Positions 1-9,880 of a stretch of DNA of 32,016 nt are shown in pieces; the first letter of the stretch is position 1, and every line of letters begins with the position of its first letter. The DNA is from a virus (lineage: Duplodnaviria; Heunggongvirae; Uroviricota; Caudoviricetes). The stretch lies in the IMG/VR virus record IMGVR_UViG_2541047849_000007; one strand, 5' to 3'. Position numbers and translations under genes: made by a program. Under the pieces are notes generated by a model that was given only the letters and a program-made list of their open reading frames with translations, was not told the DNA's origin and did no database searches.

Positions 1-633
1 TCATTCATCGTTCGTTGCACGAACGCGCCTGATCTCCACTCTGGCAATCTGATCTGCTGGAATATAGGTTGCCAGAGCTCCCCAGTACTTATCAACCACG
101 CCTTTATACTCTTCCCATTCGTTACTGCCTGAAGGGCTGCTGTGCGTGACGTAAAGAACCATATCGCCTTTATTCCCCAGGGTAAACGGACCGTTAGGCC
201 ACTCTTCAAAGTTCCCTGGCAGCCGTGACATCATACCGGAACCATCGCGAAGAATCACTCTGACCTCGGTAACGCTGAAGCCTGTTTGATCAAACATTGC
301 CTGCCATGCTGAGCTGGTATCGTCAGACCATGAAATATCATTATTCCACAGTAATCTGTACATCCATTTGCGACCGTACCTGCGCCACCACGCACCGCAT
401 GTAACGGCACACAGAAGTGCTGGTGGTGTTGCCAGCCAGGCATTCAGACCTGCCCACATAACAGCCTGGTAAGCCATCATTGCTGTCAGGCCAAAAATCA
501 GCGAAGAAAAAGTCACCTCAATGGGCTTGTGGTGATCCTTCAGTCCCACATTCGCAATAAAATACCCAATATAGCCACTGGTCAGGGTCACCAGTGTTGC
601 CCATGGCAGATTTAACAACGAAACGTCAAACAT
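1..633 (-). CDS. Membrane protein of unknown function (N-terminal TM helices plus soluble C-terminal domain)
   Basis: Track ORF 1..711(-). Preferred start is ATG at 631-633 with GGGAGA RBS about 5 nt upstream; stop at 1-3. Hydrophobic segments LPWATLVTLTSGYIGYFIANVGL, VTFSSLIFGLTAMMAYQAVMWAGL, AWLATPPALLCAVTCGAWW. No family recognised. Confidence 0.55.
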   Translation of the reverse strand: MFDVSLLNLPWATLVTLTSGYIGYFIANVGLKDHHKPIEVTFSSLIFGLTAMMAYQAVMWAGLNAWLATPPALLCAVTCGAWWRRYGRKWMYRLLWNNDISWSDDTSSAWQAMFDQTGFSVTEVRVILRDGSGMMSRLPGNFEEWPNGPFTLGNKGDMVLYVTHSSPSGSNEWEEYKGVVDKYWGALATYIPADQIARVEIRRVRATNDE

Positions 634-670
634 ATTTTCTCCCTGCATCCTGAATACTAAAGAGAGAGCA

Positions 671-707
671 TAAAAAAAGCACGGTAAGGGGTCTACCGTG
701 CTTTTAT
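671..707 (-). terminator. Rho-independent terminator downstream of mor-like gene (bidirectional hairpin)
   Basis: Perfect 9-bp inverted repeat AGCACGGTA / TACCGTGCT with 7-nt loop. Flanked by A7 on plus strand (U7 after the hairpin on the minus-strand transcript) and by TTTTA on the plus side. Confidence 0.55.
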
Positions 708-747
708 ACAATAAGGAGATTTTTGAAAGGACTTTAACAAGCAGGAA

Positions 748-1146
748 TTATCTGGATTTGTTAACGTCTTTCGTCTCCTCTGGCAGATCTTCATCAAACA
801 ACCTGCCCTGCATCCGATCCAGTTCTTCTTTTCTGACCCGCTTAACCACGCTGTAGACCCACTGAAGCGAAACACCAAACTTGCGGGCCAGTTCGTGGTG
901 GTTGCGTCCGTTAAACTCCCTGAAGATTTCCCGGTCGCGCTGACTGACCTTCCATACCATGCCCATCGGGAAATAAACGTTTTGCCCGCCCCAGACCTGC
1001 ATCATTCGGTTCGCGACGGCCTGACCAATCTGGTCGGCAATTGCGGGCTCAATATCAATAATCTCGCGAACGGTCTCAGAGGTATGCTGTGCCAGCTCCA
1101 CCAGGAGTTCCGGCCCTTTACTTCGAAACTGATTCAGGTCGCTCAT
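748..1146 (-). CDS. mor: Mor/C-family transcriptional activator (Mu middle/late activator family)
   Basis: 132 aa. C-terminal FREFNGRNHHELARKFGVSLQWVYSVVKR matches the Mor/C HTH region as I remember it. ATG at 1144-1146 with GGGAG RBS. Lies directly downstream of the GemA-like gene as in Mu. Confidence 0.7.
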   Translation of the reverse strand: MSDLNQFRSKGPELLVELAQHTSETVREIIDIEPAIADQIGQAVANRMMQVWGGQNVYFPMGMVWKVSQRDREIFREFNGRNHHELARKFGVSLQWVYSVVKRVRKEELDRMQGRLFDEDLPEETKDVNKSR

Positions 1147-1570
1147 GTTTTACTCCCGCAGCTCTGTGCTGCCACTTCTTCAGTTTCTCAATAACACTGC
1201 TTGCCTGTTCAGTATTGAGCCAGCGCAGGGCGCTGATGCCCGTTTCCCGCTTGATCCACCGCGCTAATGCATTTTCTGAACGGTCACGAACAATGCCGGC
1301 AGCAGCCATTTCAAGCCATAGCGCACGGATTTTCCTGGACTGCGGATGGTTATCCAGCGGTAAACCGGAGCTGGCTTTTCCGGCAGGCTTAACGCGAAAG
1401 CCTTTCCTTTTCATGGATTCCAGCACGCAGTTTAGTTGTGTGGTATCCATTCCTTTGGTTGAGGCTTTACCGGTCAGCCCCTGTAACATCTGGCGATAGG
1501 TGTCTTCATCCATACCCAGTTCATTACGGGCAATATGAATGAGCTGGATAAGACGTTGTTTAGTCATCAT
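1118..1570 (-). CDS. gemA: GemA-like protein (Mu gp16 family, DUF1018)
   Basis: About 150 aa from ATG 1568-1570 (AAGGAG RBS 5 nt upstream). N-terminal KQRLIQLIHIARNELGMDEDTYRQML resembles the GemA family. Overlaps the mor start by 29 nt. Confidence 0.65.
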   Translation of the reverse strand: MMTKQRLIQLIHIARNELGMDEDTYRQMLQGLTGKASTKGMDTTQLNCVLESMKRKGFRVKPAGKASSGLPLDNHPQSRKIRALWLEMAAAGIVRDRSENALARWIKRETGISALRWLNTEQASSVIEKLKKWQHRAAGVKHERPESVSK

Positions 1571-1775
1571 CGTTGCTCCTTTTACCTGCGCCACCGATAT
1601 AATCGACATATAAAGGAAGCGCCACAGGCCAGCACAGGAACATCACCGACCAGCTAATCCAGTAGCCGGCACCACTGTAACGTGAATAAAACCCTGAACG
1701 GCGGTGCAGTTCAGCAGTACACCAACCGACAAAACAATACCAGAACAGGGCACATACAACAGATTCAGCCGTCAT
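1560..1775 (-). CDS. Small hydrophobic protein (71 aa), unknown function
   Basis: Internal ATG 1773-1775 of track ORF 1560..1931, preceded by a G-rich RBS. Product is largely hydrophobic (VVCALFWYCFVGW ... WSVMFLCWPVALPLYV). Overlaps neighbouring genes on both sides. Confidence 0.35.
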   Translation of the reverse strand: MTAESVVCALFWYCFVGWCTAELHRRSGFYSRYSGAGYWISWSVMFLCWPVALPLYVDYIGGAGKRSNDDD

Positions 1776-1995
1776 TCTGAATATCCCCCCAACTGATATG
1801 AATATTACGGGCAGCAATGACAGGGTCGTTATTCCACCATGCACCTGACATGTATTTTTCAACCTGTTCGCGTCCGGCAATAACACCAATTGTGATCCCC
1901 GGCCTGACGTTCTTAAAAAAGGCGCGGGCAAAAAGGTATCTGGCAGATATTCGGCAGGCTTTTAATTTCCGGCTGTTACCTGATAGCGTAATCAT
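1765..1995 (-). CDS. Hypothetical protein (76 aa)
   Basis: ATG 1993-1995 overlaps the stop of the upstream gene (ATGA coupling); GGAGG RBS. Confidence 0.45.
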   Translation of the reverse strand: MITLSGNSRKLKACRISARYLFARAFFKNVRPGITIGVIAGREQVEKYMSGAWWNNDPVIAARNIHISWGDIQNDG

Positions 1996-2676
1996 CTGGC
2001 CTCCAGTTTCTGTTGTTCCTGCCCACTGACCGGGCGGTGCAGTCTGACGTTCTGCCCTTCACGAAACCCCGCATAGCGCGAGGCGTCGCCATTGCGGCTT
2101 CTTCCCGGTTTACGCGCCCTGGTGGTTTGCGTCTGCGGGTATTTATGTTCCAGCCACTGCTGCATCAGTTCACGCTCATCATCGGTCAGGGCAAAGGACT
2201 GTATTTCACTGATAACGGCCAGCACCCAGCCTTCGGCAAACTGGTCTCCACGGCTGGTGCGGGTGGCGGTTTTTATTCTTTTGTTCTGTGCACTGATATA
2301 CTGCTGACGCGCCTTTTTCAGCTGACGGGCCAGCACTTCCCAGGTGTATGCAGCCAGTGCCGCACGTTCCCGGTTGCCGTAGAACCCCACAGACGGATGC
2401 GTGCCGGGGTGAATGATGGAGTTAACACCAAATACCTCGCGGATGATGTTCATCAGGCCTGGCATGTAGCGCGGTGGACGGAGACTGCCTGTCGGCCAGT
2501 AGTGACTGATGGTTTCATCAATATCACTCATAGCAATGTCGGAATGTGTGATGCCGTGAACATCCATCAGTTTACGGGCTCGGCGCAGTGCCAGAGCGGC
2601 CTCGTGCGGGTTGCCGGATGCGGCCAGCGCCAGCAACTTTTTCAGTTTCTCAATGTGTTTATTCTGGTCTGTCATT
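1992..2676 (-). CDS. Hypothetical prophage protein, DUF2786-like N-terminus
   Basis: Start ATG 2674-2676 (GGAGAT RBS). N-terminal IEKLKKLLALAASGNPHEAALALRRARKLM resembles the DUF2786 signature from memory; needs HMM confirmation. Confidence 0.5.
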
Positions 2677-2887
2677 GTTCTGTATCTCCGGTATTTTTCT
2701 GCCGTTTCCATGCCCGGACAGCGTCGGACAGCTCTTTCAGGCTGTATGCTGCTTTAAGCTTTTCCCATAACCACTGTGTTGTTATGTGCATCAGCAGGGC
2801 AGCCAGGGCTGCCCCCGCACTGAGGCATGTCGCCAGGCCAGTAAGAATCAGTATCCATGCGGTGATTTCCCTGAGTATGTCAGCCAT
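2672..2887 (-). CDS. Small membrane protein (71 aa)
   Basis: ATG 2885-2887 with GGGAGG RBS. Central hydrophobic stretch AWILILTGLATCLSAGAALAALLM. Confidence 0.45.
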   Translation of the reverse strand: MADILREITAWILILTGLATCLSAGAALAALLMHITTQWLWEKLKAAYSLKELSDAVRAWKRQKNTGDTEQ

Positions 2888-2901
2888 TGAATGCCTCCCG
2901 G

Positions 2902-3198
2902 TTACTCGTTCGTGTAAATCACGCCCAGTCGTGCAGCCAGACGTTCCAGTTTTTTCTGTTTGTGGAAGTCAATCAGCCGGTCCATCCCCTGAAGGCGCAA
3001 TTGCTCTGTCATGATTTCCACGTCTGCCAGCTCTGCCGCGAGGTCGCTTTCGCTGCCCTGTCCGTTCAGATTGCGGGCAGCACTGGCCGCCAGTTCAGCG
3101 GCCTCTTCTGTCAGTTTCAGGGCCTGTGCGTCCGGCCCGAAACGCTGCAGGGCCAGACGGTAGAGGGCGGTGCGGGTGAGTATGGTGTTCCGTGTCAT
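2902..3198 (-). CDS. MazG-like all-alpha NTP pyrophosphohydrolase (putative)
   Basis: 98 aa. EExxE-type motif (LTEEAAELAAS) and a second acidic motif (AAELADVEIM) in the arrangement typical of MazG/HisE-type pyrophosphatases. ATG 3196-3198 with GAGGG RBS. Confidence 0.45.
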   Translation of the reverse strand: MTRNTILTRTALYRLALQRFGPDAQALKLTEEAAELAASAARNLNGQGSESDLAAELADVEIMTEQLRLQGMDRLIDFHKQKKLERLAARLGVIYTNE

Positions 3199-3207
3199 GC
3201 CGCGCCC

Positions 3208-3480
3208 TCAGTGCTTCCGGCTGACGGTGATGTGCAGGCCGCCTTCTGCAGTGGTTTCCATCCGGTACGGCACCTCATGCTCTGCCGTGTGGGTGAGTGT
3301 GTTCATCAGTACCTGCAGGGCAGCCGCCTTTCCGTTGGTTGCCACAATGGCCTGTGTGGTCATGCTGATTAGCGCCGTCAGGACGTGCTTCACATCGGTG
3401 AGGTCGCGGCATTCACACTCGTTGACATAGTGTTCAACAAGGGTTCGGGTGCGCTGTCGTGCTTCCTGTGGGGTAATCAT
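3208..3480 (-). CDS. Hypothetical protein (90 aa)
   Basis: ATG 3478-3480 with GGGAGG RBS; ATGA overlap with the downstream gene stop. No family recognised. Confidence 0.45.
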   Translation of the reverse strand: MITPQEARQRTRTLVEHYVNECECRDLTDVKHVLTALISMTTQAIVATNGKAAALQVLMNTLTHTAEHEVPYRMETTAEGGLHITVSRKH

Positions 3481-3671
3481 TGCGAGTCCTCCCTGTCAGG
3501 GCGGGAGAATTCCATGACGGGCACGTCTGCCGAAAAATGCTGGCTGCAGTACGGGCAGACCAGGGTGACGCGTACCGCAGGGATGTGGTATTTACCGGAC
3601 ATCACGGCGATGGCGCTGTGAAAACGCAGGGCTGTTATATCCCTCTCGCACTGAATACATTTAAATATCAT
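3477..3671 (-). CDS. Small Zn-ribbon-like protein (64 aa)
   Basis: Two CxxC pairs (CIQC ... CPYC). ATG 3669-3671 with GAGGAG RBS. Confidence 0.5.
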   Translation of the reverse strand: MIFKCIQCERDITALRFHSAIAVMSGKYHIPAVRVTLVCPYCSQHFSADVPVMEFSRPDREDSQ

Positions 3672-3768
3672 GATTTAATTCTCCTCTGTTTCCGGCGTGC
3701 AGAAGCCCGCGGCGCTGACGCCGGAATAAAAAAGAAAATGTTTTTATTAAATAATTAACGTGGTGTGT

Positions 3769-4299
3769 TTACTGCACATCCTGCTCAAAAGGAATTATTG
3801 AAAAATCCTCAATGTCGCTTTTAATGGAAATACCGGGAATATTTTTCACGGCCTCTTTTTCATTCAGGATAGCGTCTTTATTTATTTCCTCTTTTACACG
3901 AATAAAGCGCTCAAGCCCCAGACGTCTCAGTAATTCAATAACATTATCCGCCCCACGGATACTGACTGATGGCGGACGGTTTCGCCACTGCACCTCGCCG
4001 GTGGTAAGGTTAGCGAACTTCACCTTCCCGTTGCCGGTCAGTTCATCACGGTGCGCCTCACACCATGTCTGGATACCGGACTGCAGTTCGGCCATGCGTT
4101 TTTTCAGGCTCTCGGTGAGCGGGGCATAACGTGCGGTGATATCGCCAATGGCGTCATTCATTTCTGTTTCAGCCCTGACCAGTTCACGTTGTGCGTCACC
4201 GAGTAGTCTGATTCCCTCAATGACCTCTTCGCGTGTCCCTGGTACCCAGAGTGCCGCTGCGGCCTTGATACGTTTTGCCCCTTTTGTACTTTTTGCCAT
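3769..4299 (-). CDS. gam: Gam-like host-nuclease inhibitor (Mu Gam family)
   Basis: 176 aa with the size, charge pattern and coiled-coil character of Mu Gam. Sits downstream of transposition gene B as in Mu. Confidence 0.65.
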   Translation of the reverse strand: MAKSTKGAKRIKAAAALWVPGTREEVIEGIRLLGDAQRELVRAETEMNDAIGDITARYAPLTESLKKRMAELQSGIQTWCEAHRDELTGNGKVKFANLTTGEVQWRNRPPSVSIRGADNVIELLRRLGLERFIRVKEEINKDAILNEKEAVKNIPGISIKSDIEDFSIIPFEQDVQ

Positions 4300-4326
4300 A
4301 TTTTATGATTTCTCCGGTTGTGCTGA

Positions 4327-4596
4327 TTACCACAAAGATTCCGGCCACACGACGCGACAGCCGTGCAGTTCGAAAACGCCCTGACGGAAATATCCCCTGT
4401 GGTCATGTCCGGTATACAGATAACAGGCCTTTCCCTGCTCAAGCATGCGCATGCAATGCGCACTCCGGGAAACGCGGATGACAGGTTTGTTACCCCTGAT
4501 GGTGATGCTTTGTACATCCGTGTTCGTCGCCTTAAGCGCCATAATGGCTGACTGCACTTTGCTGATTTGCTGGTTGATACCTGTGGTGGATTTCAT
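4327..4596 (-). CDS. Hypothetical protein (89 aa)
   Basis: ATG 4594-4596 with AAGGAG RBS, immediately after the B stop (TAATAATG). Confidence 0.45.
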   Translation of the reverse strand: MKSTTGINQQISKVQSAIMALKATNTDVQSITIRGNKPVIRVSRSAHCMRMLEQGKACYLYTGHDHRGYFRQGVFELHGCRVVWPESLW

Positions 4597-4598
4597 TA

Positions 4599-5765
4599 TT
4601 AAACTCCTTTGACAACGTCAGCGTTGACCTGTGGAACCCCGATTTCAGCGGCCAGATTCATGGCGGCTATTACCAGGTTACTGACGGCCAGCGGATACAG
4701 CAGGCTGACCATATTTTTACGATGACTTCCCGGATTGCTCAGGCGGGCACGTATGGCATCCACTGCGCTGGCGTCCATAATGTCCGTCAGTTGTTTACCG
4801 GCCCGTTGCAGTTTGAACGTCAGAAATTCTTCAAGGTTATTGTCCAGAGGCAGAAGTTCGACCACCTCACAGCGCTGAACGACTTCACGGACTTCCATAT
4901 TGCGTTCAGACAGTTTTGTCGCCAGTTCCGGCTGGCCAATCAGCACGATGGACAGCAGTTTTTTGAAACCGGACTCCAGCTCAAAAAAGCGTTTGAGGTG
5001 TTTCAGTGTCGGAATGGGCAGACTGTGGGCCTCCTCAATCACCAGAACGTGGCTGAACCCCGCCTGGCTGCTGTCTTTCAGGACGCGATGCAACTGGCGA
5101 AAGCGGGCGTCCTGACTGCGTCTGATGCTTTCCAGTGGTGCGATGGTACTGATAATGGCTTCGGCAATAGCTGCTGCCTTCAGGGTTTTCCCTTTCACAT
5201 CGTTGTCTTCCATAGCGATGATGTATGGCTCGATAACAATTACCGGCGCATTCTCGCGGTTAATACGTTCAGTCAGGTCGCGGCGCAGCGTGGATTTACC
5301 CGCACCGGACTCACCGATGACGGCCATAAACCCACCATGACGGGCTGTCTGGTACAGCGCCTCACGCACGTAGCGAATGTCCGGGGTGGTGAACACATCA
5401 TCAGAACCCTGCATGGCTTCATCGGCGAACGGGTCACGGAAAAGACCAAACGCTTTTTTGGTTGCTGGAAATAACACCTGTTTTTTGAGTAACATATTCT
5501 CTTCCTCACTGAGGCTCGTTTTATCTGTGGTACCCGCTGTACGGGGCGTGGCCGCGCCCTGTACAGCATCAAAACTCTTCGTTGTATCAATCCCCTGACT
5601 TTCCAGCCAGGACGCAAGACGCCGGCGCACTTCTCCGGGGCTGGTGCGGGGCCACGCGTTATGATTCACAATCTGGGCCAGCGTGGCCTCAGAAACATCG
5701 ACAGCTCTCGCCGCCACCGCCTGTGGAATACGGGCCTCTTTCAGTTGCTGCTTCAGTACCAGCAT
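4599..5765 (-). CDS. AAA+ transposition ATPase / target-DNA activator (MuB/TniB-like)
   Basis: Walker A GESGAGKST and Walker B-like VLVIEEAH; N-terminal HTH-like region. Preferred start is ATG 5763-5765 (GAGGAGGG RBS 5 nt upstream) rather than the track start at 5792. Immediately downstream of the transposase. Confidence 0.8.
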   Translation of the reverse strand: MLVLKQQLKEARIPQAVAARAVDVSEATLAQIVNHNAWPRTSPGEVRRRLASWLESQGIDTTKSFDAVQGAATPRTAGTTDKTSLSEEENMLLKKQVLFPATKKAFGLFRDPFADEAMQGSDDVFTTPDIRYVREALYQTARHGGFMAVIGESGAGKSTLRRDLTERINRENAPVIVIEPYIIAMEDNDVKGKTLKAAAIAEAIISTIAPLESIRRSQDARFRQLHRVLKDSSQAGFSHVLVIEEAHSLPIPTLKHLKRFFELESGFKKLLSIVLIGQPELATKLSERNMEVREVVQRCEVVELLPLDNNLEEFLTFKLQRAGKQLTDIMDASAVDAIRARLSNPGSHRKNMVSLLYPLAVSNLVIAAMNLAAEIGVPQVNADVVKGV

Positions 5766-5775
5766 GTTTCCCTCC

Positions 5776-7545
5776 TCAGTTGCCGTTAACAATGCTGATA
5801 ACGCTGCTGCGGGCCGGCGTGGTCAGCGTGGCCATGACTTCATCCAGTGCGGCTTCCGGTACGCCGTCCGGGTACTGTGCTGTTAACTGGCGGTAATGTT
5901 CCGGCGTCCAGGTCAGGCCGTCGGCGCTGAACTTATCGCGCAGGGCTTTCGCGGCCTCCACATGAGTCATGGGACGCTGTTCAGTGCGCGGTCCGCGTAC
6001 GTCAGAGGCCTGACCACGCTTCGGTATACAGGCCGGAAGTGTGGCGTCATCAATATGTTTATACGGGTCAAGCCGCCCGCCGAACGGCAGCGCCTTCGCC
6101 TTGCGTGCGGCAGCTGCATCTGCGGCGTTGTCTGTACCGGTGACCAGCGCTTCGGTTTCTTTTGCCGCCATCTGCGCCGGGGTTTCCGGCAGGGCTTTGT
6201 AACTTTCGCCAAATACCGCCGCGCCTTCAGCAAAGCCAAACTCGTTCTTTCTGACCTCTTCGACCAGGAAGAACGTCTCGTGGCCGTCCTCACCGGTCAG
6301 AACCACCTGTGCCACATCGCTGCGCCACGGGTTACGGGTAATCATCAGTTTTTCACCGACCAGTACGCCCGGTACCGTTGATACGTCAAATTCAGTGCCC
6401 CGGAACGAGACACGAAGTTTTGGCGTGACTTTGCGGAGTTCTGGTGCCGCCACAGCCAGTTCACGACATACCTCAACGGAAGGCGCTTTTTTCAGCTGCT
6501 CAGCAGTAATCTTCAGCCAGATATCCGTGCGGGTTTTACCGTGGCGGCTGTGAACAGCCGTGGCGTTAAAGTGGCTGCGCCATTTCGCGGCCAGCGCGTT
6601 GAGTTCTTCCAGACTGTGAACCGGCCGGAACTTCAGACCCGGCTCCAGCTTGCGTTCGATAATGTCACGCGCCTTTTCCACCTGTCCGGTGGCGCGGGCG
6701 TTATGCGGCTTGTGCGCTATCAGGTCGATGCCCAGTGAGCGGCACATGTTTTTCGTCATACCCGCGGTGTTTGCCGAGCCGGGGTCGAGATAGAGTATTT
6801 TTGGCACGCCGTGCAGCACGTCTGCGCCGCCACGCTCCTGCATGGCGTTGATAAGCACAGAACACAGGTTCTCACCGGATTCCGCACCCGTCACATACTC
6901 AACGTAAATCCAGCCGCTGGCATGGTCGGTAATCTCGTAACTCCACACGCGGTCACTGGCGATACGGGCAAGGTTAGCGGGCTTGTTTTTGTAGAATTTC
7001 GCGCTGTCCATCACCTGCAGCCCTTTATGTCCATTGCTCAGGTAGTAAAGCGTGCAGAGTGAGGCGTCAATCTGCCAGACATGATTGGGGTGCAGACTGG
7101 CCACTTCGGTATGCGGTGCAGGGGCATCCAGTTGTTCCGGGTGCAGGCCATAGTTACGCAGGGCACGACTGATGGCATCTTCGGACAACGGGAAAAACTC
7201 ACCGGTGGTTTCATCTGTTCTGCCTGCGGAGATAAAGCCGTTAGCCCGCAGGGTTTCCACTGCATCCGCGATGGAATAGAGACGCTTACCGTTCTTGCGG
7301 GTGGCCTCACGTAGTGTGGCAGATATCAGCGCGGCTTCGTCGCGGGTCAGGGTGCTGCGTCCGGCATCGGCGCGTTTTTTGCGTTTATCAGTCACAGAGA
7401 CCTCCTTCAGCCTGCGCAGCAGAGTGGCGCGGGACATGCCAAGTTCAGCACAGGCAGCGTCGTATATTGCACCGCGTTTACCATGCCCCGCATTACGTGC
7501 CGCGCGGGCTGTTTCAACAAGTTTTTCAGTCAGTGCCGGGGTCAT
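5776..7545 (-). CDS. DDE transposase (Mu A-like, rve/integrase core)
   Basis: 589 aa. N-terminal HTH region, then a catalytic core with candidate DDE residues (HVWQIDAS ... LYLDPGSANT ... downstream E). ATG 7543-7545. Confidence 0.85.
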   Translation of the reverse strand: MTPALTEKLVETARAARNAGHGKRGAIYDAACAELGMSRATLLRRLKEVSVTDKRKKRADAGRSTLTRDEAALISATLREATRKNGKRLYSIADAVETLRANGFISAGRTDETTGEFFPLSEDAISRALRNYGLHPEQLDAPAPHTEVASLHPNHVWQIDASLCTLYYLSNGHKGLQVMDSAKFYKNKPANLARIASDRVWSYEITDHASGWIYVEYVTGAESGENLCSVLINAMQERGGADVLHGVPKILYLDPGSANTAGMTKNMCRSLGIDLIAHKPHNARATGQVEKARDIIERKLEPGLKFRPVHSLEELNALAAKWRSHFNATAVHSRHGKTRTDIWLKITAEQLKKAPSVEVCRELAVAAPELRKVTPKLRVSFRGTEFDVSTVPGVLVGEKLMITRNPWRSDVAQVVLTGEDGHETFFLVEEVRKNEFGFAEGAAVFGESYKALPETPAQMAAKETEALVTGTDNAADAAAARKAKALPFGGRLDPYKHIDDATLPACIPKRGQASDVRGPRTEQRPMTHVEAAKALRDKFSADGLTWTPEHYRQLTAQYPDGVPEAALDEVMATLTTPARSSVISIVNGN

Positions 7546-7560
7546 AGCTTGTCTTCCCTG

Positions 7561-7878
7561 TTATCCGATTCTGGCGGCAATTTTTCTGGCACGGTCGCGC
7601 AGGGTTTCGCCATCGCAGGTTTTCACCACGTTATTTACCGGTTGCGGCGCAACTGCCGGGCGCAATGCTGACTGATGCTGCAGACGTCTTATCTGCTGCA
7701 TCAGCATCACTTCCATCGTCAGTACAAACGGATGCGCCTCCTGTGCGGGTACGCAGATTTCACCGGAAGGTGTCACCACGCGGAAACCCTGCACCATCTC
7801 CGGCAGCAGATTACACAGTGCGTGCCCCAGTGCCTCCGGGCTGTCCATCAGGATATTTTGTGTGTTATCCGTGTTCAT
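7561..7878 (-). CDS. Hypothetical protein (105 aa)
   Basis: ATG 7876-7878 overlaps the upstream stop (TAATG). No family recognised. Confidence 0.4.
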   Translation of the reverse strand: MNTDNTQNILMDSPEALGHALCNLLPEMVQGFRVVTPSGEICVPAQEAHPFVLTMEVMLMQQIRRLQHQSALRPAVAPQPVNNVVKTCDGETLRDRARKIAARIG

Positions 7879-8795
7879 TACTGCATGCCCTCCGGTCGGT
7901 TGATTTCAGGCTCCGGTTCGGTCAGCCATGCGGGGACATCGTTACCCGATGGTGCGGCATCAAGGTCGAACGTCTCACGCAATGCATGAACACTGCGTTC
8001 AATCTGGCAGACCAGACCGGCCATGAAATCTCTGGGGGTATCAATCATGTTTTTACTGCAGTATTCACACAGGGTTTCAAAGGCACCGGAGAGCCGGACG
8101 GCGATGGCAGATTCCGCCTCAACCGCTAATGCGGTCACTTCCGCCCGCAGCTTCTTCACCTCTTCATCAGGCTCAGGCGGTTGAATACGGGATTTCTTCT
8201 CCAGTTTTGTGGCCAGTTCGTTGATTTTTTCGTCCTTTCCGGCAAGCACCTGTTGCTGAGCTGCGTTAGTTTCGCGCGCTTCACGCAGGGCCTGGCGAAG
8301 TTCACGTACTGACATGCGATCAACATCATCAAGCGTCAGGCCGGCAACTGTGCCGCCGTCGGCCAGTTCGGCAAGGTCTTCATCGTCTTCAGCAACAAGT
8401 TCAAATAATTTTGCCTTACCCAAAAGCGACAACGTTGTCGCTTTTGGCTCTAGTTTTGGTGAAAGGTATTTCAAAGATGCTTTCATCATTCGTTGTGCTG
8501 CGCGCACGTGCAAACCAAGTTGTTCTTCTACAATTCCAACAAAGTCCCCGTGTGGCTCATTTTCTTTTAAGATGATCAGCCGTTTACCCGCTTCCAGCAT
8601 AGATTCAGCACTCTGCGCCATATAAAAACGTGCTTCGTGAACGATGCGATCACGTTCATAAGGCAGTCCATCACCAAACTGCTGCATGATCTCCATGCGA
8701 TGCTGTGTCATGGCATTCAGGCTGACGTTGAGATCATCCGACAGCGGTACCTCGGCGTTCAGTTCAGTGTTAACCGGTGATTTGGTGCGTCCCAT
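7878..8795 (-). CDS. Hypothetical protein (305 aa), acidic coiled-coil C-terminal half; possibly DUF3102-like
   Basis: ATG 8793-8795 with AAGGAG RBS. Family assignment is tentative and from memory only. Confidence 0.45.
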   Translation of the reverse strand: MGRTKSPVNTELNAEVPLSDDLNVSLNAMTQHRMEIMQQFGDGLPYERDRIVHEARFYMAQSAESMLEAGKRLIILKENEPHGDFVGIVEEQLGLHVRAAQRMMKASLKYLSPKLEPKATTLSLLGKAKLFELVAEDDEDLAELADGGTVAGLTLDDVDRMSVRELRQALREARETNAAQQQVLAGKDEKINELATKLEKKSRIQPPEPDEEVKKLRAEVTALAVEAESAIAVRLSGAFETLCEYCSKNMIDTPRDFMAGLVCQIERSVHALRETFDLDAAPSGNDVPAWLTEPEPEINRPEGMQ

Positions 8796-8805
8796 TGATT
8801 ACTCC

Positions 8806-9120
8806 TTACAAACGACTACCTGAAATGACACGTTGGTTGATTTCGTTAATGCGATCCTGTGCACGTGCCATCTCGTTACTGTGGGCCATGGCGATCTGCA
8901 GCAACTGGATGCCCGGTGCGAAACGCCCGTTTTCCAGTTTCAGGGCCAGTCCTTCTTCAATGAGGGTGTTGAGTGCCCGGTTGATGTTTGCCGGTGACTC
9001 GTGCAGTGCTGCCGCCAGTTCACCATTGGAAATACCGTTCAGGGCATGACCGCGCAGCGCTTTGAGTACCCGGAGGATGCGACTGCCGGAGCTTGAAACA
9101 TTCGTCTTACTCATCTGCAT
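8806..9120 (-). CDS. Winged-helix DNA-binding regulator (putative)
   Basis: ILRVLKALRGH ... ISNGELAAALHESPANINRALNTLIEEGLA resembles MarR/IclR-type winged HTH. An alternative start at ATG 9112-9114 has better GAGG spacing. Confidence 0.5.
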   Translation of the reverse strand: MQMSKTNVSSSGSRILRVLKALRGHALNGISNGELAAALHESPANINRALNTLIEEGLALKLENGRFAPGIQLLQIAMAHSNEMARAQDRINEINQRVISGSRL

Positions 9121-9166
9121 ACCTCTTTTGCGATATGTGATAACCTTTTACAAAGAATCAAAATAT

Positions 9167-9355
9167 TCAGGCTGCCTGAGCTGTTGATTTCAGCCCCAGT
9201 TTCACGGCGATTTCATGGGATTTACCGTAACGTGCTTTGCTCTGCCCATTGAGAACGCGGTATACCTCATTGCGGTTGTAGCCGTTTTCTTCTGCCCAGC
9301 GGGTGAAAGTGATCCCGCGCTGGCGGAAGAGAGCTTTGACTTGTTCTGCAGTCAT
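9167..9355 (-). CDS. ner: Ner-like DNA-binding protein (first gene of early operon)
   Basis: 62 aa. RYGKSHEIAVKLGL resembles the Mu Ner/Nlp C-terminal helix region. AAGGAG RBS. Sits directly downstream of a strong sigma70-like promoter and diverges from the repressor gene. Confidence 0.55.
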   Translation of the reverse strand: MTAEQVKALFRQRGITFTRWAEENGYNRNEVYRVLNGQSKARYGKSHEIAVKLGLKSTAQAA

Positions 9356-9402
9356 CGTTGTCTCCTTTGTTGATGCAATGATGTTTGCCTTATGTGTGAT
9401 AG

Positions 9403-9431
9403 ATTATGGTGCAGATTATCTCACCAGTCAA
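9403..9431 (-). promoter_or_regulatory. Early promoter (Pe-like) with overlapping putative operator repeats
   Basis: On the minus strand: TTGACT (-35; plus 9426-9431), 17-nt spacer, CATAAT (-10; plus 9403-9408). Direct repeats AGATTAT at about 9401-9407 and 9413-9419 overlap the -10 and spacer. Confidence 0.5.
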
Positions 9432-9455
9432 CTTAAAGAGTGCAGAAAAACTCAC

Positions 9456-9794
9456 ATGATCGGGTTACGTATTAAAGAAGAAAGAGAGCGTCTATCTCTT
9501 ACACAGCAAGGGTTGGCTGATGCTATCGGTGTGGCAAAGAGAACTTTTATTGATTGGGAAAAAGATCGCACTTCTCCTACTGCAGTGCAGTTATCTGCAC
9601 TATCAGAAATCGGTGTAGATGTTTTGTATGTAGTTACTGGGGTGCGGAGTCAGCCTGTTGTTGCACCTTATATGTCACAAGAAAAGAAAGAGTTAATGGA
9701 TGCATTCGACGAGATGAGCCCCGAACAACGGAGGGCAATTCTTGAGGTCGGCAAAGTCTTCATTCAACCCAAACCAAGCAAACTCGCAGGCTGA
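9456..9794 (+). CDS. XRE-family HTH repressor (lysogeny repressor candidate)
   Basis: ATG 9456. Classic HTH_3 region LSLTQQGLADAIGVAKRTFIDWEKDRTSP. Divergent from the early operon. The track ORF begins at an upstream GTG inside ner and is not preferred. Confidence 0.7.
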   Translation: MIGLRIKEERERLSLTQQGLADAIGVAKRTFIDWEKDRTSPTAVQLSALSEIGVDVLYVVTGVRSQPVVAPYMSQEKKELMDAFDEMSPEQRRAILEVGKVFIQPKPSKLAG

Positions 9795-9880
9795 TTCTGA
9801 CCTGGACAGAAAGGACAGGTGGTTGATCTGGATGCTTTCAGAAAACGCCGTCAGTAGCATGGCAGAAATCGGCGGGCTTA

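Follow-up and report, generated by a model that had tools for sequence, protein, structure and literature searches.

A 98-amino-acid protein encoded in the early region of a Mu-like Escherichia coli prophage is a predicted small member of the MazG/HisE superfamily

A small gene in the early region of a transposable E. coli prophage encodes a protein of 98 amino acids, and the combined sequence evidence supports its assignment to the MazG/HisE superfamily as a small phage member. Here we describe the gene, its conserved motifs, its homology to the superfamily and its position within the operon. Its assignment to the NTP pyrophosphohydrolases is already known from public databases, as PHROG 2245 and RefSeq so label the gene; a literature search returned no paper containing the accession WP_001295929.1 or the number of PHROG 2245. 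The newer RefSeq name is correct for a gene called “hypothetical protein” elsewhere, and the present analysis supplies profile-profile and structural evidence for it.

Results

Arrangement of the early region

The whole analyzed stretch of 32,016 nt (IMG/VR record IMGVR_UViG_2541047849_000007), called the window here, represents a transposable E. coli prophage of the BcepMu type (Mu-like), and over its first 8 kb it shares 98% identity with Escherichia phage PhiKM (Bcepmuvirus). The following features of the early region, all on the minus strand, are given in the direction of transcription:

9403-9431, minus strand: candidate early promoter TTGACT-17-CATAAT (10/12) upstream of the first early gene, from the promoter scan
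8806-9120, minus strand: HTH regulator (IclR/HTH-like), 104 aa, first early gene
5776-7545, minus strand: transposase A
4599-5792, minus strand: transposition ATPase B
3769-4299, minus strand: Gam
2902-3198, minus strand: coding sequence of the 98-aa predicted NTP pyrophosphohydrolase (MazG/HisE superfamily, single-domain, all-alpha, PHROG 2245), from the ORF and profile matches
1992-2711, minus strand: protein with DUF2786 and DUF7168, 239 aa, PHROG 421, two genes downstream of the 98-aa gene
1118-1609, minus strand: GemA
748-1146, minus strand: Mor
1-711, minus strand: ORF of 236 aa, with a TTG start as listed; PHROG 12870 (residues 27-236, E=9.6e-134)

Several small genes, also on the minus strand, lie between Gam and the 98-aa gene. 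The latter is directly followed by a gene for a 71-aa protein and then by the DUF2786/DUF7168 gene, GemA and Mor. Long plus-strand ORFs occupy the region from 9.3 to 32 kb and were taken as late genes. The location in the early operon, as claimed in an earlier note made from the letters of this DNA, thus stood up to inspection, the gene lying between Gam and GemA/Mor on the strand of the transposase.

Synteny with phage Mu, together with a single promoter-like site, leads us to infer early timing for the 98-aa gene. This site, 9403-9431, is the best sigma-70-like site of the early region, and no other promoter-like site was seen on the minus strand in 700-9800, in a promoter and terminator scan whose sites were no more frequent than in shuffled sequence. 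It may be the equivalent of the Mu Pe promoter and the source of a transcript including the 98-aa gene.

Two other genes of the region deserve mention. The DUF2786/DUF7168 gene keeps the same position in PhiKM and in the prophage of an ST131 strain. The 236-aa ORF at the left edge of the window, just downstream of Mor, has hydrophobic N-terminal segments and matched nothing in Pfam or PADLOC; it could be a cargo (“moron”) gene ending the early region.

Reading frame and selection

The ORF listing of the window gives an ORF with an ATG start at 2902-3198 on the minus strand, encoding the protein MTRNTILTRTALYRLALQRFGPDAQALKLTEEAAELAASAARNLNGQGSESDLAAELADVEIMTEQLRLQGMDRLIDFHKQKKLERLAARLGVIYTNE. 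A Shine-Dalgarno sequence was read 6 nt 5′ of the ATG, where it overlaps the TGA that ends the preceding gene. On the 3′ side, the following gene starts after 14 nt and is preceded by GGGAGG.

In the minus-strand frame, dN/dS was 0.195 in the comparisons with phage PhiKM and with the ST131 prophage, and 0.149 in the comparison with Klebsiella phage KP12. The 98-aa gene is under purifying selection, and because of dN/dS values of 0.15-0.2 in this frame we consider it coding. An overlapping plus-strand ORF of 161 aa (2887-3372) was dismissed as spurious on the basis of the minus-strand dN/dS.

Acidic motifs and conserved residues

The ribosome-binding site and the three segments of the protein with candidate functional residues are located as follows:

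3205-3209, minus strand: Shine-Dalgarno sequence GAGGG, read from the sequence
3094-3108, minus strand: first, predicted metal-binding acidic motif EExxE (E31-E32-A-A-E35), from the sequence and conservation among homologs
3022-3033, minus strand: second acidic motif ExxD (E56-L-A-D59), from the sequence and conservation; it opens the conserved block AEEIADVEIM
2941-2952, minus strand: basic patch K83-L-E-R86 in the last helix, with candidate phosphate-binding residues; each of K83 and R86 is kept in at least 90% of 150 homologs

The EEAAE segment is encoded by GAA GAG GCC GCT GAA (the reverse complement of 3094-3108) and ELAD by GAG CTG GCA GAC (3022-3033, minus strand). The presence of an EExxE motif and a second acidic motif, noted earlier, was thereby verified directly in the ORF. 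Members of the all-alpha NTP pyrophosphohydrolase superfamily (MazG, HisE and dimeric dUTPase) carry EExxE followed by ExxD, about 12-28 residues apart and on two helices. In the 98-aa protein 20 residues separate the two motifs, which places it within this twin-motif pattern.

We assessed conservation in an alignment of 150 diverse homologs with 28-68% identity to the query. E31 is invariant (150/150), and at least 90% of the sequences retain each of E32, E35, E56 and D59. The same level is reached by Y13, A16, G21, Q25, L36, A58, V60, I62, M63, Q66, K83, R86 and L87. The consensus of the 150 members reads ...WG..AQ.....EE..EL.........G.......AEEIADVEIMLEQ.........K..KL.RL..RL. Judged by this conservation, the acidic motifs are more than a chance occurrence. 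The segment K83-L-E-R86 resembles the K-L/F-x-R-R segment of E. coli MazG by eye only, as it lies outside the region aligned by hhalign.

Assignment to the MazG/HisE superfamily

Residues 1-97 of the protein match PHROG 2245, “nucleoside triphosphate pyrophosphohydrolase”, with E=2.8e-34, and three other NTP-PPase or MazG-like PHROGs were matched more weakly. The PHROG 2245 profile has 218 positions, of which the protein spans only 113-211, because some members possess an N-terminal extension or a second repeat. All of the 150 aligned homologs match PHROG 2245, and 56 of them also match the NTP-PPase family PHROG 4856. The RefSeq protein WP_001295929.1, which is 98% identical, is named “nucleoside triphosphate pyrophosphohydrolase family protein”. 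Between this protein or PHROG 2245 and the 98-aa protein we found no difference of substance; they represent the same family.

Curated domain models gave sub-threshold results. In Pfam there was no match to MazG (PF03819), and PRA-PH (PF01503) was found with E=0.047 and 14.5 bits, below its cut-off of 21.3. NCBIfam yielded the HisE model TIGR03188 alone (E=0.035; 14.3 bits, cut-off 42.7). Among 63 homologs, 14 had sub-threshold Pfam matches (MazG in 11, PRA-PH in two and MazG-like in one).

Searching PDB sequences with the single sequence or a close-family profile returned nothing meaningful. A broader family profile, run against 177,635 PDB sequences, produced 10-12 matches that included the MazG-type entries 5ie9, 2gta, 2q5z and 2q73. 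The chain 3zta_A and designed helical bundles rank just above the MazG chains in this search. The former, which is the helical N-terminal domain of a STAS-domain protein from the Moorella stressosome, was the best PDB sequence match (E=6e-4) and stood consistently above the MazG chains; it matches through the stretch EIAD.V.IM..Q, without EExxE, which the printed alignment leaves unaligned. This match is probably due to chance, and we treated it as an artifact of helical composition. The designed bundles match as short repetitive segments and were likewise set aside as artifacts.

For profile-profile comparison, a reference set was built from a 50-residue stretch of PDB 5ie9, which led to 80 loci in Bacillota and to an alignment of 76 YpjD/BcMazG-type proteins. 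Aligned to this set with hhalign, the 63-member family profile reached a probability of 95.0% (P=3.6e-8) over 48 columns. EExxE was placed on EEvGEL and EEIADV on EELGDV of the YpjD-type MazG, so that both motifs are in register. The native profile scored 47, compared to 9 for the column-reversed profile and at most 16.5 for 40 column-shuffled profiles; since these controls score far lower, an artifact of composition is ruled out.

The family proposed in the earlier note, MazG/HisE, is borne out by the agreement of PHROG 2245, the RefSeq name, the COG-type names given to homologs by JGI, the fold search described below and hhalign. The profile-profile comparison against this superfamily, suggested there as a check, was positive for MazG of the YpjD/BcMazG type.

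Predicted structure

An AlphaFold monomer model computed with the 150-sequence alignment is all-helical, with a pLDDT of 94.5 and a pTM of 0.80. It replaced an earlier run with 20 close sequences that was unstable (best model 84, others 54-65). When the PDB was searched with Foldseek, the top 12 matches were all DCTPP1, the PRA-PH domain of HisN2, iMazG, BcMazG or Sulfolobus solfataricus MazG, each of them individually weak (E 0.2-0.5, TM about 0.5, probability up to 0.94). Among viral predicted structures, the best matches were annotated as “nucleoside triphosphate pyrophosphohydrolase” (TM 0.73-0.81, E down to 3e-5).

Comparison with characterized MazG-type proteins

Of the reference families tested, the YpjD/BcMazG type (PDB 2gta, 5ie9) alone yielded a significant profile-profile match. 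Its members are all-helical single domains of about 100 aa, as is predicted for the 98-aa protein, with EExxE and ExxD on consecutive helices. The alignment, however, covers only query residues 20-67 and leaves the helices at both termini unaligned. Between the motifs, the loop of the 98-aa protein has about 5 residues fewer. Furthermore, genes of the YpjD type belong to the chromosomal housekeeping set of Bacillota, whereas the 98-aa gene is a phage gene.

E. coli MazG (PF03819), encoded in mazEFG, shares the superfamily motifs, and EExxE and ExxD are in register in the alignments. It consists of tandem domains and is linked to mazEF, in contrast to the 98-aa protein with its one domain and no toxin-antitoxin linkage. 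A close kinship of the two was rejected, as the similarity was not significant in three types of comparison. The probability in hhalign was at most 1% with the single sequence as well as with alignments of the N- and C-terminal domains, Smith-Waterman scores with 2000 shuffles corresponded to z-scores of 0.3 and 1.3, and a profile-HMM search (hmmsearch, database size set to 1) gave E=0.001, which we did not count as significant. All relatives retrieved from a database by starting with E. coli MazG were at least 80% identical, too uniform for a reference profile, and tblastn with E. coli MazG against phages provided few usable references. We conclude from these comparisons that the 98-aa protein belongs to the superfamily only distantly, the small single-domain enzymes being closer to it than E. 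coli MazG.

HisE/PRA-PH (PF01503), DCTPP1, integron iMazG and S. solfataricus MazG are the best neighbors in the fold search, although with TM-scores of no more than 0.42-0.51 and an rmsd of 4.5-8.5 Å. PRA-PH is also the best Pfam match, yet below the cut-off. We rejected a HisE function on account of the missing histidine-operon context and the sub-threshold score.

Distribution of the gene and its family

The segment 2672-3480, comprising the 98-aa gene and its two neighbors, was matched in 621 out of 5426 complete E. coli genomes, and every match is chromosomal. In the ST131 chromosome, WP_001295929.1 is encoded in the same gene order within a Mu-like prophage. The records of PhiKM and KP12 and many older E. 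coli records label the gene “hypothetical protein”. In a close search, 46 relatives turned up, almost all of them from enterobacterial genomes and for the most part without a name; one is called “NTP pyrophosphatase (non-canonical NTP hydrolase)” by JGI. An exhaustive search identified 1573 cluster representatives at E≤0.001, and a profile search at least 6798 proteins, few of which carry the NCBI name “nucleoside triphosphate pyrophosphohydrolase family protein”. No homolog from the close search or among the at least 6798 from the profile search had a precomputed Pfam domain.

The PHROG 2245 family, of about 90 aa, is represented in Enterobacteria and Bacillota phages as well as in a haloarchaeal genome, there within a virus-like region. 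Its distant homologs, in Tepidimicrobium and Halolamina genomes and in metagenomic phage contigs, lie in tight co-directional arrays of small genes, next to RusA, DnaC-like, DUF1064, DUF551 and methylase genes. Such loci are typical of early or replication regions of phages.

Discussion

Proposed activity and role

We propose that the 98-aa protein would be a catalytically competent single-domain all-alpha NTP pyrophosphohydrolase. By homology, E31, E32, E35, E56 and D59, presented by two antiparallel helices, would bind Mg2+, and K83 and R86 on the last helix probably hold the phosphate chain. The NTP would be cut between its alpha and beta phosphates, releasing the monophosphate and pyrophosphate. 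A dimer or tetramer is probable, as in other MazG proteins of about 100 aa. The gene would be co-transcribed with the early genes encoding transposase A, B, Gam, GemA and Mor, and the enzyme would for this reason be made during replication by transposition. Its most likely job would be to clean or tune the (d)NTP pool for phage DNA synthesis.

We lean slightly toward this house-cleaning or pool-tuning role during replicative transposition, which we chose by default from the general activity of the superfamily. The sequence itself does not choose among aberrant or canonical dNTPs, (p)ppGpp and an immune nucleotide as candidate substrates. The role sketched in the earlier note, an alteration of nucleotide pools or the hydrolysis of an alarmone or a defense signal, is speculation.

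Several alternatives have to be weighed against a role in pool maintenance. With the same fold and chemistry, the substrate might be (p)ppGpp, (p)ppApp, a viperin-made chain terminator or another defense-related nucleotide, and an enzyme produced early could then blunt the stringent response, the activation of toxin-antitoxin systems or abortive infection; we regard this as possible but doubtful. The precedent is the MazG-like pyrophosphatase Atd1 from Pectobacterium phage PcCB7V, which hydrolyzes ppGpp with a Km of about 50 µM and protects against TIR-STING toxicity (bioRxiv 10.1101/2022.06.09.495361). By its description Atd1 is also a short phage MazG catalytic domain with twin acidic motifs, but ppGpp hydrolysis and protection are experimental features of Atd1 and not of the 98-aa protein. 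Within the early operon, the 98-aa gene occupies the accessory part, surrounded by small genes annotated without function, which is the usual place of host-takeover genes, and on one contig a gene for a PemK/MazF-type toxin lies two genes downstream of a homolog (at the loci of the fusion protein P0128, described below). However, the protein belongs to PHROG 2245 and not to the “MazG-like pyrophosphatase” families PHROG 715, 1992 and 1247, which are touched by only one or two of the 150 homologs. PADLOC gave no match for the 98-aa gene or its neighbors, and none of the loci read, those of homologs included, showed a link to a known anti-defense gene. Moreover, a cyanophage MazG reportedly prefers dGTP/dCTP and does not hydrolyze (p)ppGpp (Rihtman et al. 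2019, as cited in PMC12846349), which would mean, as far as that citation goes, that the activity is not general to phage MazG proteins. The stronger proposal that PHROG 2245 would be a dedicated counter-defense hydrolase, destroying early in infection an immune or stress nucleotide such as (p)ppGpp/(p)ppApp, ddhNTPs or the precursor of a defense signal, appears unlikely to us.

Several characterized phage enzymes of the MazG type are base-specific, and the 98-aa protein might accordingly be a dNTPase that biases the pool (dCTP/dGTP), like T4 gp56, S-2L MazZ or the cyanophage MazG, serving a modified-base pathway or the base composition of the phage instead of general house-cleaning. The preference of the cyanophage enzyme for dGTP/dCTP, as cited in PMC12846349, is in line with such a specificity. 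The structure of S-2L MazZ (7ody) is among the fold matches, but at rank 42 and weak (E=3.2), and the family scans of the early region (window 1-9120) revealed no modified-base partner such as PurZ or a hydroxymethylase; we consider this specificity quite improbable. Least probable, and hardly to be expected, is a non-catalytic helical protein (a regulator, binding partner or pseudo-enzyme) that keeps the MazG-like shape. The protein has only 98 aa and remains below every curated family cut-off in Pfam and NCBIfam, and the appearance of the unrelated 3zta and designed bundles among the top PDB profile matches indicates that helical composition alone can yield weak matches. Against this, the hhalign controls exclude a composition artifact, and the five carboxylates together with K83 and R86 are each retained by at least 90% of relatives that share only 28-68% identity with the query, unexpected for a pseudo-enzyme. 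In addition, tandem relatives lose the motifs in one repeat and keep the other intact, which argues that selection acts on the motif itself.

As it stands, the assignment matters little; it would matter more if the substrate were a defense or stress nucleotide. PHROG 2245 is a large phage subfamily outside Pfam, and the few characterized phage MazG enzymes disagree on their substrate. As the family is large and outside Pfam, the copy in the E. coli prophage is a convenient representative for the substrate question. If the counter-defense reading were true, the prophage copy, which roughly every ninth sequenced E. coli strain carries, could also alter the stress signaling of its host.

Relatives with additional domains and an unusual record

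E. coli MazG shows an asymmetry between its two domains. A similar one was seen in three tandem two-domain relatives (P0050, P0059 and P0081), in which one repeat is degenerate (e.g., RHLSKL in place of EExxEL) and the other intact. Four homologs of 166-169 aa, 64-73% identical to the query (P0012, P0030, P0031 and P0036), combine the NTP-PPase domain with a C-terminal extension of about 70 aa, which in P0031 has a weak match to HTH_29.

P0128 (loci L091-L093, 4001-4648), a protein of 215 aa found on 24 phage-like contigs, has an N-terminal domain with a DxDGV motif fused to the NTP-PPase domain. The N-terminal domain matches HAD hydrolases in Pfam sub-threshold (E=6.5e-4, below the cut-off) and GmhB in the PDB with E=0.07. 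The P0128 genes stand beside DnaC-like and RusA genes. A fusion to such a HAD-like, phosphatase-type domain would fit, as a weak indication, a route of successive nucleotide dephosphorylation. One further search hit, P0088 with 1288 aa, was a false positive and represents a TPR/AAA protein.

The 35-kb record OM835952.1 (L008, Klebsiella phage KP12 clone KP12_2) bears Vequintavirinae in its taxonomy line. It has a Mu-like order of transposase, B protein and early genes and is 88% identical to the window at the nucleotide level; for this clone, the Vequintavirinae label looks wrong.
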